Sequence record: PP925834.1
Source of the DNA: Escherichia phage MiataMamis
Length of the DNA: 64,000 nucleotides
Direction: 5' to 3' (one strand)
Shown: positions 1-1,083 of the stretch, one piece after another
Numbering within the stretch: position 1 is the stretch's first letter
Layout of the letters: the number at the start of each line of letters is the position of its first letter
The notes under the pieces: model-generated
Told to the model about the DNA's origin: nothing
What the model saw: the letters and a program-made list of their open reading frames with translations, nothing else
The model's database searches: none
Translations under genes and position numbers: made by a program

Positions 1-170
1 ACTGAACATAATTGACATGCATGACTGTTTACGCTCTCATTATTCACGCTATTACTATTCACTCCCTTTACTATTCACGCTCTTACTGTTTACATGCTTA
101 ATAGTACACATGACCAATAGTTTACATAGCTAACTGTTCACGTATAGACTATTTACACAAAGATGATAAG
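1..170. repeat. cluster of short direct repeats (ACTRTTYAC, about 7 copies) in AT-rich non-coding DNA
   Basis: tgactgtttacgc, ttactattcac (x2), ttactgtttacatgc, tagtttacatagc, taactgttcacg, gactatttacaca. Confidence 0.5.
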
Positions 171-189
171 CCATGCCATTCGTTTGCAT
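170..189. repeat. 20-bp direct repeat GCCATGCCATTCGTTTGCAT, copy 1
   Basis: Identical to 401-420. Confidence 0.6.
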
Positions 190-253
190 GACAATAATTA
201 TACATGACAATAATCACACTGATTATAATTAGCATGACATAATATAAAAGCAG

Positions 254-281
254 GGCAACTATTAGCAGATCTATAGTTGCC
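254..281. promoter_or_regulatory. operator-like palindrome GGCAACTAT-N10-ATAGTTGCC
   Basis: Perfect 9-bp inverted arms; further single copies of the same 9-mer at 314-322 and 419-427. Confidence 0.45.
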
Positions 282-400
282 TTGCTTGTTATGTCATGAT
301 TAACTAAATACAAGGCAACTATGATCTGAATAATAGATTGCAGACAAACTATCACGGGGGTGATGGTTACTGCTTTTATATTATGTCGCGACTCCGTCGC

Positions 401-420
401 GCCATGCCATTCGTTTGCAT
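401..420. repeat. 20-bp direct repeat GCCATGCCATTCGTTTGCAT, copy 2
   Basis: Identical to 170-189. Confidence 0.6.
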
Positions 421-1035
421 AGTTGCCTTATTGTTACAGATAAAATAATTGTATTGTTAATTATTTCTTATCTTTCTCTTAGTCATCTAATGATTCCAGT
501 CAGTATAGTAATGTACAGTAAACATTAGACGACTAAATATTTCTCTGTTTATGATAACTCACCATGACAATTTCTGACTGTTTACGAAAAATGTTGACAC
601 CTAAGCTGATTTATGTTATGCAGTTTACACGAATAATTATTTTATGCAGGTATTGACTATTCCGTTATTCTATGGTCGGAATAAATACTTAGCGGACTAT
701 AGAATGGTGAGCGTACGTGAATTCTGGAATTTAGTGGCTATAGTTATACCCGATTTTTCACGTAGAACACGCTTTTGTGGTTATGTAAGTGCATGACTTA
801 TAAAGATTTTTAGTTGTTGACAAGACACTGAAGATATGCATCAGGTTAAATTTTGTGCAATAGCTGCATTACGTGCAATTTTGGAAGGAAAAACGTGTAA
901 AAATGGCCCTCCTACCACACAATGAAAGATTATGCAATAGCTATTTTATATGTATATTTGTACAGTGTGTGGGATTGATGGCTAGTCAATTATTCCACTT
1001 GCCAGGCTGGGCCGTTTGTGGTAGGAGAAATACAG

Positions 1036-1066
1036 ACAAAAAGAAAGGGGCCTTTTAAAGCCCCTG
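1036..1066 (-). terminator. intrinsic terminator (hairpin AGGGGC-N8-GCCCCT plus T-run)
   Basis: GC hairpin followed on the minus strand by TTCTTTTTGT; just downstream of stop of 1084..1503. Confidence 0.6.
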
Positions 1067-1083
1067 ATAGTTTAGTTAAGAAA

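Follow-up and report, generated by a model that had tools for sequence, protein, structure and literature searches.

Positions 1-1083 of a 64,000-nt stretch of Escherichia phage MiataMamis (sequence record PP925834.1; the whole stretch is called the window below) appear, from homology to relatives with mapped ends, to be gene-free unique DNA that borders the left direct terminal repeat (DTR) on its inner side and abuts the genome end. Short repeats in one orientation and in a regular phase occupy the beginning of this DNA, and a large hairpin held in a module between two direct repeats follows them. By analogy with other phages, we tentatively favour the view that these arrays and hairpins are cis-acting sites for end formation or packaging, combined with insulation from transcription, and are not gene switches.

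Location of the region relative to the genome ends

The window comes from an rV5-like coliphage (Vequintavirus), and positions 1-1083 match 119 phage records, virtually all of them from Vequintavirus, at 82-97% identity. They correspond to rV5 105459-106617, which lies within a 2.6-kb gap (104013-106618) that has zero annotated genes and is flanked by convergent genes, a plus-strand block ending with gp158 and a minus-strand block ending with gp159. The region is the right half of this gap, and a preliminary description based on the window overlooked that the non-coding DNA extends ~1.45 kb further upstream. For the comparisons below, 14 relatives were aligned to the window (15 phages in total), and coordinates on relatives carry the labels L001 (stretch of rV5, NC_011041), L010 (FV3, NC_019517), L016 (ICP1_2006_A) and L017 (Klebsiella phage KPP-1).

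The vequintaviruses EdH4 and HdK5 were reported to have a 458-bp terminal redundancy (Korf 2019, PMC6563267). Indeed, the first 459 nt of the EdH4 record are identical to its last 459 nt, and the Gotham record annotates a repeat_region at 1-459. When the DTR was used as a query, EdH4, Gotham, HdK5 and ECP2309 each matched at 1-458 and once more elsewhere in the record, and the matches in ECP2303 and Pr121LW reached within one base of the record end. Among the matches listed (60 of the 119 records), the DTR has a constant length of 459 bp and is 93-98% identical, and the records of many relatives open ~420-520 nt before the position that is homologous to the first base of the window. The right edge of the DTR reads ...GAAAAACTTGTC|TGACAY in every relative examined (also given as ...AAAACTTGTC|TGACAC; the bar marks the boundary). 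Since the rV5 DTR occupies L001 4515-4973 and window position 1 is L001 5001, the window starts, by homology, ~27 nt into the unique DNA right of the left DTR. The same arrangement of DTR and array is found in slur16, whose array is identical to that of the window over the aligned 97% of positions 1-169. Moreover, both DTR boundaries coincide, to within a few bases, with an abrupt shift in conservation.

The same ends are also found in a sister genus. KPP-1 (Mydovirus) has a 514-bp DTR, classified by PhageTerm as "T7 type" and accompanied by doubled (2x) coverage (PMC9862379), and its boundaries are homologous to those of rV5 (left, GTGCT..|G[GA]CGGAC; right, CTTGACAA-purine run-TTGT..|). The ends of EdH4, Gotham and KPP-1 at homologous boundaries are what is expected of a pac/cos-type site beside mapped termini, and they bear out the suggestion in the preliminary description that the region may lie near a genome terminus. 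Published packaging claims for this group conflict, including circular permutation (PMC3606486), headful packaging by PhageTerm (PMC13211470), the 458-bp redundancy (PMC6563267) and the T7-type 514-bp DTR of KPP-1 (PMC9862379). The sequence evidence favours fixed short terminal repeats over permutation, because the same boundaries recur in independent records and conservation changes sharply there.

The locus has so far been known as an oddity. Kropinski 2013 drew the rV5 gap as a "non-coding" box without open reading frames (ORFs) and gave it no function, and the authors anticipated bidirectional terminators in the gap and failed to find them (PMC3606486). The Phage Annotation Guide of 2021 termed such gaps in rV5 "wastelands" (PMC8785237). 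Both papers concern the same locus as that analysed here and report only the absence of ORFs, with no terminal repeat, arrays or hairpin (PMC3606486, PMC8785237). We found no description of the contents of this empty box in the literature; the short terminal repeat of vequintaviruses is mentioned in passing in few papers, and we did not find its link to the gap described. Nor did we find descriptions of its anatomy, which comprises arrays running from the cut in a 15-16-bp phase, a 152-nt hairpin that has a counterpart at a similar place in the sister genus, and a natural deletion in FV3.

The region does not behave as protein-coding DNA. A conserved gene spanning the repeats was looked for in the relatives and was not found: over 421-1045, variable columns are distributed 53:67:56 over the three codon phases, versus 22:4:3 in the adjacent 139-aa gene (15 phages), the length differences of the array and module among phages are not multiples of 3, and related GenBank records mostly annotate nothing in the region. 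A coding reading is rejected on the codon-periodicity and indel tests, with no large protein-database search made for the short ORFs, in agreement with the preliminary description, which had seen no convincing gene.

Phased repeat arrays and the hairpin module

The features of the first 427 nt are as follows.

1-23, plus strand: last units of a TGACAY-type sub-array with a ~10-bp period (TGAACAT at 3-9, TGACAT at 13-18)
24-160, plus strand: main array of ~9 same-orientation units with consensus TNAYTRTTYACR and a 15-16-bp period (the ACTRTTYAC repeats)
170-189, plus strand: DR1, left copy of the 20-bp direct repeat GCCATGCCATTCGTTTGCAT, 100% identical to 401-420
187-243, plus strand: CATGACAATAAT-type repeats with a 16-bp period, hypervariable among phages
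236-387, no strand assigned: 152-nt extended imperfect hairpin with a perfect 18-bp outer stem (236-253/370-387)
248-287, minus strand: local palindrome AAGCAGGGCAACTAT-N10-ATAGTTGCCTTGCTT, followed on the minus strand by TTATATTATG, terminator-like for leftward transcription
347-382, plus strand: terminator-like hairpin AACTATCAC-GGGG-GTGATGGTT with T-rich tail ACTGCTTTTATATT for rightward transcription, present at the same site in rV5
388-400, no strand assigned: small GC hairpin GCGAC-TCC-GTCGC, invariant in relatives
401-427, plus strand: DR2, right copy of the 20-bp repeat (401-420), overlapping a fourth 9-mer ATAGTTGCC (419-427)

All repeats listed in the preliminary description are real and lie at, or within a base of, the positions that it gave, and shuffle counts and repeat finding indicate that they are non-random; their strict 15-16-bp phasing and the 18-nt inverted repeat that closes the 152-nt hairpin had escaped it. 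Exact ACTRTTYAC occurs at 24, 54, 70, 85, 133 and 148 and again at 577, with ~10 units when degenerate ones are counted. In the 64-kb window the motif occurs 10 times versus 2.24 expected, a number reached by 0 of 100 shuffles; seven of these copies lie within the first 585 nt, all on the plus strand, and three more in the remaining 63 kb. Tandem Repeats Finder (TRF) reports periods of 15 and 16 for the array, and the spacings of a loose core (TT[TCG]AC) in the window are 16, 15, 15, (9+7), 15, 32, 16 and 15.

This organization recurs in relatives. In all 13 phages compared (13/13), the array begins at +1 after the DTR boundary and keeps the same phase and orientation with a varying copy number. 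The first TGACAY unit starts exactly at the right boundary of the DTR, ~27 nt upstream of the window, and is part of a run of 3-6 TGACAY-like units spaced by 9-11 nt, of which the window keeps the last two. Next come 5-12 TNAYTRTTYACR units per phage, all in one orientation, with spacings dominated by 15 (25 cases), 16 (21) and 30/32 (12). The distance from the DTR to DR1 ranges from 131 to 239 nt among phages, reflecting units gained and lost. The aligned array columns have a nucleotide diversity (pi) of 0.18 in addition to indels, compared with 0.124 for third codon positions in the adjacent gene, and are the fastest-evolving segment of the region. Motif, phase, orientation and the start at the boundary are nevertheless kept, which suggests that selection acts on the number and phasing of the units rather than on their exact sequence.

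The module between the two direct repeats combines a variable and a nearly invariant part. The variable part (190-235) largely coincides with the CATGACAAT repeats (copies at 187 and 203, a degenerate one at 233; TRF period 16, 3.8 copies), and in other phages it is occupied by different ACAAT/AACAAG-type repeats or by a 45-nt GC hairpin insertion. The adjoining hairpin (236-387) is nearly invariant where present (pi 0.018). Inside its outer stem, inner stems pair 255-264 with 331-341, 266-271 with 323-328 and 273-284 with 311-322, the last being a perfect 12-nt pair. Predicted folding energies are -78 and -73.9 kcal/mol for the RNA of the two strands and -59.9 kcal/mol for DNA, with z scores of ~-10 on either strand, and no shuffle equals them. 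A 33-nt insertion in rV5 and A135 is located at the hairpin apex; recurrent substitutions fall on the unpaired positions 330 and 337 and on position 266 (5 phages), where a pair beside an internal loop is broken. No compensatory pair was seen, the substitutions among the aligned relatives being too few for covariation. This variation pattern is consistent with structural constraint. KPP-1 carries an analogous hairpin of 206 nt (L017 2839-3044), which is not evidently similar in sequence to that of the window and has a perfect outer stem of 21 bp; the 241-nt stretch containing it (L017 2825-3065) folds at -100 kcal/mol (z -8.9). The distance from the DTR is 310 nt for the KPP-1 hairpin, on the right side, and ~263 nt for the element of the window.

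In the preliminary description, the palindromic 9-mers were taken as operators for a dimeric regulator. GGCAACTAT is found at 254 (plus), 273 (minus), 314 (plus) and 419 (minus), that is, as four copies within 175 bp including a perfect dyad, GGCAACTAT-N10-ATAGTTGCC, and its frequency in the 64-kb window (5 versus 0.57 expected; 0 of 100 shuffles reach 5) is clearly non-random. In addition, rV5 has a gene labelled "transcriptional regulator" ~3.5 kb away, across the DTR. A dimeric regulator acting on this dyad and related sites would be expected to control early promoters. However, sigma-70-like promoters in 1-1083 score at best 9/12, no better than shuffles, so that none stands beside the dyad, and no gene is transcribed away from the region. 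Only one other copy of GGCAACTAT exists in the 64 kb, and the copies at 254, 273 and 314 are arms inside the 152-nt hairpin, which resembles two terminators placed back to back; the arms of the local palindrome reach 15 nt (248-262/273-287), and FV3 does without the whole module. Neither a host homolog of the region nor a matching host operator was found among 5,426 complete E. coli genomes (similarity search in distant mode). As a candidate for a widespread operator, GGCAACTAT-N6-14-ATAGTTGCC was sought in IMG/VR and found on 24 contigs, two of them from vequintaviruses and the others carrying unrelated, longer terminator-like hairpins. The operator claim therefore finds no support, and we regard such a control region as highly improbable.

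FV3 keeps a single 20-mer and lacks all that lies between the two copies in the window, and its close relative HMD-6 has the 231-bp module (190-420). The simplest reading is a deletion between DR1 and DR2 in FV3. The absence may be a natural deletion or an assembly artefact at a strong palindrome. Presence and absence as a unit, the flanking 20-bp direct repeats, the strong inverted repeats and the very stable fold on both strands could also describe a miniature mobile or insertion element, or a gene for a small structured RNA. Against this, the module is present as a single copy, with no second one in the 64 kb, in the 5,426 E. coli genomes or in phages other than vequintaviruses; its inverted repeats are internal, not terminal; it has no promoter; and the FV3 pattern is explained more simply by the deletion. 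We consider either kind of element very improbable. Outside vequintaviruses, the 20-mer direct repeat gave chance matches inside genes only. A known RNA family was ruled out, with zero Rfam matches on the homologous rV5 locus (E<=1).

The rest of the region, up to the first gene, contains the following features.

428-478, no strand assigned: AT-rich spacer (GC ~0.32-0.35)
479-536, no strand assigned: conserved 58-nt hairpin (arms 479-500/515-536), followed on the plus strand by a T-rich run
537-1045, no strand assigned: non-coding stretch under moderate constraint, with an isolated exact ACTGTTTAC at 577-585
1046-1065, minus strand: intrinsic terminator that ends the leftward gene block (T run after an 8-bp stem, 5 of whose pairs are GC)
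1084-1503, minus strand: first gene, 139 aa, homolog of rV5 gp159/ORF164 (PHROG 12277, function unknown), the right limit of the non-coding region

Across the 14 relatives, column identity of the 479-536 hairpin is 97-99%, and the ~500 nt after it have a pi of 0.07-0.09. Over 421-1045 as a whole, pi is 0.073 (0.124 at third codon positions of the next gene), and a single indel, a 1-nt deletion in rV5, was found among the 15 phages. This indicates moderate constraint of unspecified nature. A scan for rho-independent terminators picked 347-368 on the plus strand and 1046-1065 on the minus strand; the equivalent of the latter is annotated as a terminator in Murica and EdH4. The third site, 248-287 on the minus strand, was recognized by eye from its T-rich tail and is annotated as a minus-strand terminator at about the equivalent position in the Murica record.

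Terminator-like elements on both strands at a convergent location would suit a mere transcription buffer, in which the hairpins terminate and insulate the converging units and the arrays are slippage filler, a "wasteland" in the sense of the Phage Annotation Guide (PMC8785237). The arrays do evolve faster than third codon positions and freely gain and lose units. For neutral filler, however, the retention of motif, orientation, 15-16-bp phase and the start at the DTR boundary in 13 phages is unexpected, and so are the low pi of 236-540 (0.018-0.047, versus 0.124 at synonymous sites) and the single 1-nt indel in 421-1045. A buffer with filler alone is thus quite unlikely.

Possible function and neighbouring features

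Under our preferred reading, the arrays and hairpins would serve the genome end as follows. Replicating concatemers would hold one DTR copy per junction, and the packaging enzyme would cut at ...GCTGCCA|GGCGGAC... on the left and at ...AAAACTTGTC|TGACAC... on the right, with the 459 bp between being duplicated. The same-orientation repeats that run from the right-hand cut would be multi-copy candidate sites for a phage DNA-binding protein, which may be a specificity factor of the terminase or a factor processing ends or junctions. The bound protein would mark and orient the junction, as the cosB sites of lambda do or the T7 array is suspected to do. Function would need many phased sites and not an exact number, and free turnover of copy number would be tolerated because many phased sites suffice. 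The 152-nt hairpin, the 479-536 hairpin and the 1046-1065 terminator would keep convergent transcription out of the junction. For the arrays, we infer both the protein binding and the packaging role from their location, phasing, enrichment and conservation pattern; the proposed blocking of transcription by hairpins draws support from the terminator-like sites at 1046-1065 (minus), 347-368 (plus) and 248-287 (minus). Comparison with the layout of T7 and with the ORF-less terminus region of ICP1, a relative whose DNA polymerase is 43% identical, also supports this reading.

Several points weigh against it. On the other flank of the DTR, a related array as in T7 was not found: the rV5 sequence left of the DTR contains no forward RTTYACR and a single TGACAY, and carries different words instead (CCTGAAGAG x4). 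The DTR lies outside the window and its adjacency rests on homology, slur16 being the strongest link. Regular arrays are limited to Vequintavirus, and KPP-1 shares the DTR ends and has only ~2 RTTYACR copies; conservation together with the packaging machinery is seen for the DTR ends themselves and not for the arrays. Being genus-specific, the arrays cannot provide the core signal for packaging in the subfamily as a whole; this signal more probably resides in the conserved DTR or its ends, with the arrays as accessories. The hairpin module would be dispensable, because FV3 does without it, if the FV3 assembly is correct. The packaging role is thus putative, and some papers label vequintaviruses or ICP1 as circularly permuted or headful packagers (PMC3606486, PMC7145576, PMC13211470).

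A further, doubtful extension of the packaging reading is that the TGACAY and TNAYTRTTYACR arrays, which begin right at the DTR cut, and the large hairpin, whose position is conserved between genera, together form an assembly platform for the packaging specificity factor of the rV5/ICP1 supergroup. This factor might be a "small terminase" of a non-canonical type or an initiator of end duplication or rolling-circle replication. In that case, a single nucleoprotein complex would initiate both packaging and late replication. We found no report of a small terminase of rV5-like phages in the literature.

The preliminary description had proposed "a regulatory or origin region". Its regulatory half found no support, given the lack of a promoter and the converging genes, and its origin half stays the main, though unlikely, rival. 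The region would then be a replication origin, probably a late rolling-circle or secondary one, in which the repeats are iterons bound by a phage initiator and the AT-rich segment at 428-478, with the hairpin, aids melting or priming. The combination of many repeats in one orientation, AT-rich DNA and large inverted repeats indeed fits the classic origin layout, and the motif is concentrated at one locus within 64 kb. Moreover, ICP1 reportedly uses an alternative origin for its late, rolling-circle replication, and this origin was placed close to the pac site within the corresponding ORF-less DNA (PMC7145576; PMC9040626). However, the 15-16-bp spacing corresponds to 1.5 helical turns, not to the ~11 or 22 bp of helix-phased iterons, and neither the DnaA box TTWTNCACA nor the integration host factor (IHF) consensus WATCAANNNNTTR occurs in 1-1083. 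There is no initiator-like gene beside the region, the AT-rich segment sits ~250-270 nt from the array with the FV3-dispensable module between them, and the arrays are missing from the sister genus. The late coverage peak of ICP1 is explicable by packaging cuts (bioRxiv 2024.04.22.590561), and the theta origin of ICP1 is located elsewhere (PMC7145576). In addition, the skew change at rV5 104425-105475 was ascribed by its authors to transcription direction (PMC3606486).

Words in and around the terminal repeat provide further candidates for recognition sites. In rV5, CCTGAAGAG occurs at L001 3906, 4320, 4355 and 4438, on one strand and within 530 nt left of the DTR; there is 1 copy in the 64-kb window, and the corresponding KPP-1 flank (L017 1683-2016) has two CTGAAGDG copies. 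These copies may represent a second, different set of candidate protein sites across the terminal repeat. Short words are also common to the rV5 DTR (L001 4643 and 4661), the ORF-less region of ICP1 (L016 936 and 1432) and the KPP-1 DTR (L017 2455). GAGAATAGTTATCATT of rV5 matches GAGAATAGCTATCATT of ICP1, and GAGAATAGYTATCATT occurs in both of these regions. A 14-mer, AATGAGAATCATTC, is identical in ICP1 and KPP-1, with a rough chance probability of ~0.02. Words common to such distant terminal regions may reflect a conserved recognition word inside the terminal repeat.

Left of the DTR, ~400 nt of non-coding DNA (L001 3595-3990, rV5 ~104053-104448) are nearly invariant, with a pi of 0.00-0.03 per 50-nt bin in 11 vequintaviruses. 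Its 5' part contains a near-consensus sigma-70 promoter (TTGACA-16-TAAAAT with TG, L001 3683-3710, 11/12). A structured RNA was considered for the conserved element at L001 3716-3995 and ruled out, its fold being no better than shuffled (z -1.08), and no Rfam match was obtained. The invariant stretch could encode an abundant RNA or tiny peptides.

On the right side, the small proteins next to the region were considered as candidate binders of the arrays. They have no Pfam or PHROG function, and the 139-aa gene is missing in array-bearing phages: it is present in rV5, Murica, isim, JLBYU08, naam, A135, JES2013, phiWec193 and HeinrichReichert, and absent from EdH4, slur16, FV3 and HMD-6, all of which keep arrays. 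The "Rel homology domain" noted for this gene in Murica and the "FtsK DNA translocase" label of the next gene in some records found no Pfam support.

Two observations concern the records more generally. The family A DNA polymerase gene is uninterrupted in the window (21653-24430, minus strand, 925 aa), and its match is split into 2-3 pieces in FFH2, APECc02, FV3, rV5 and JLBYU08, with HNH endonuclease or hypothetical genes between them. This suggests mobile insertions of intron or intein type that vary among isolates. Among the 119 matching GenBank records, 18 (MG0656xx) are titled "Campylobacter phage" and are 82-95% identical to the coliphage region; MG065690, the sole one opened, is marked UNVERIFIED and classified as Vequintavirus. 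The host labels of these records are probably wrong.

These results give context to a 2.6-kb "wasteland" of rV5-like phages, which are widely used against E. coli O157, that has been noted since 2013 without explanation. The physical ends of the genome fall in this gap, next to phased arrays and a large hairpin that is conserved, which makes it a defined cis-acting region. Array DNA could be used as bait in the search for the packaging-recognition protein of the rV5/ICP1 group, which includes the well-studied cholera phage ICP1. The true ends tell annotators where to open assemblies. For phage engineers, the analysis shows which non-coding DNA to keep, and the 231-bp module missing in FV3 is probably removable.

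Comparison with known terminal regions and origins

In ICP1, an ORF-less space of 1.3 kb contains both the termini and the pac site, and its two cuts are ~460-577 bp apart (PMC7145576; bioRxiv 2024.04.22.590561); the small terminase is still unidentified (bioRxiv 2024.04.22.590561; PMC9040626). The gap analysed here resembles this region in being a gene-free space with the terminus or pac site and two cuts, near which a late start of replication has been proposed. It differs in that ICP1 has no regular 15-16-bp array, is described as headful, has flanking genes that diverge from the gap and shows no overall sequence similarity. In the ORF-less region of ICP1_2006_A, a 21-nt repeat (TATTTTATGTCACGTAGTGAC/TATTCTATGTTACGTAGTAAC) occurs at L016 441-461 and 992-1012, and its spacing of 551 bp is near the reported cut sites and the 577-bp high-coverage interval. 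This pattern looks like a short DTR, as in Vequintavirinae, rather than classical headful packaging.

The cosB R sites of lambda and the pacL/pacR boxes of SPP1 are phased copies of short sequences by the cleavage site, which position the small-terminase oligomer. Several phased copies of a short sequence beside the cut are likewise present here; the differences are the lack of an IHF site, many more copies that vary in number, and binding that is putative. In iteron-type origins, such as lambda ori, P1 oriR and P4 ori/crr, repeats are usually spaced by ~11 or 22 bp. Like them, the present region combines several direct repeats with an AT-rich segment and occurs at only one locus in the genome; it differs in its 15-16-bp phasing (31 bp for pairs), the absence of DnaA boxes and the lack of an adjacent initiator gene. 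The unit TGTTCACG may resemble the type I iteron of phage P4, TGTTCACC.

A similar layout is found at the left end of T7. Its terminal repeat is 160 bp long (1-160), and inspection of the T7 sequence revealed CCTAAAG-type units with a 13-bp period at 175-341, past the terminal repeat; this left-end array was reportedly called 'SRL' by Dunn and Studier in 1983, and a related array is located on the other flank of the terminal repeat. For the T7 array itself, a role in marking and orienting the junction has so far only been suspected. The two phages differ in motif and period without sequence homology, T7 is a podovirus and the present phage a 137-kb myovirus, and early promoters follow the T7 array whereas genes point toward the end here. 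In both, however, a short DTR is followed by short same-orientation repeats in non-coding DNA. Here, the array adjoins the DTR boundary (by homology) with ~10 same-orientation units at a fixed period, and units of a ~10-bp and then a 15-16-bp period run from +1 to ~+196 after the 459-bp repeat, compared with the 13-bp period in T7. By this analogy, the terminal region of this phage appears to resemble that of T7 in kind.

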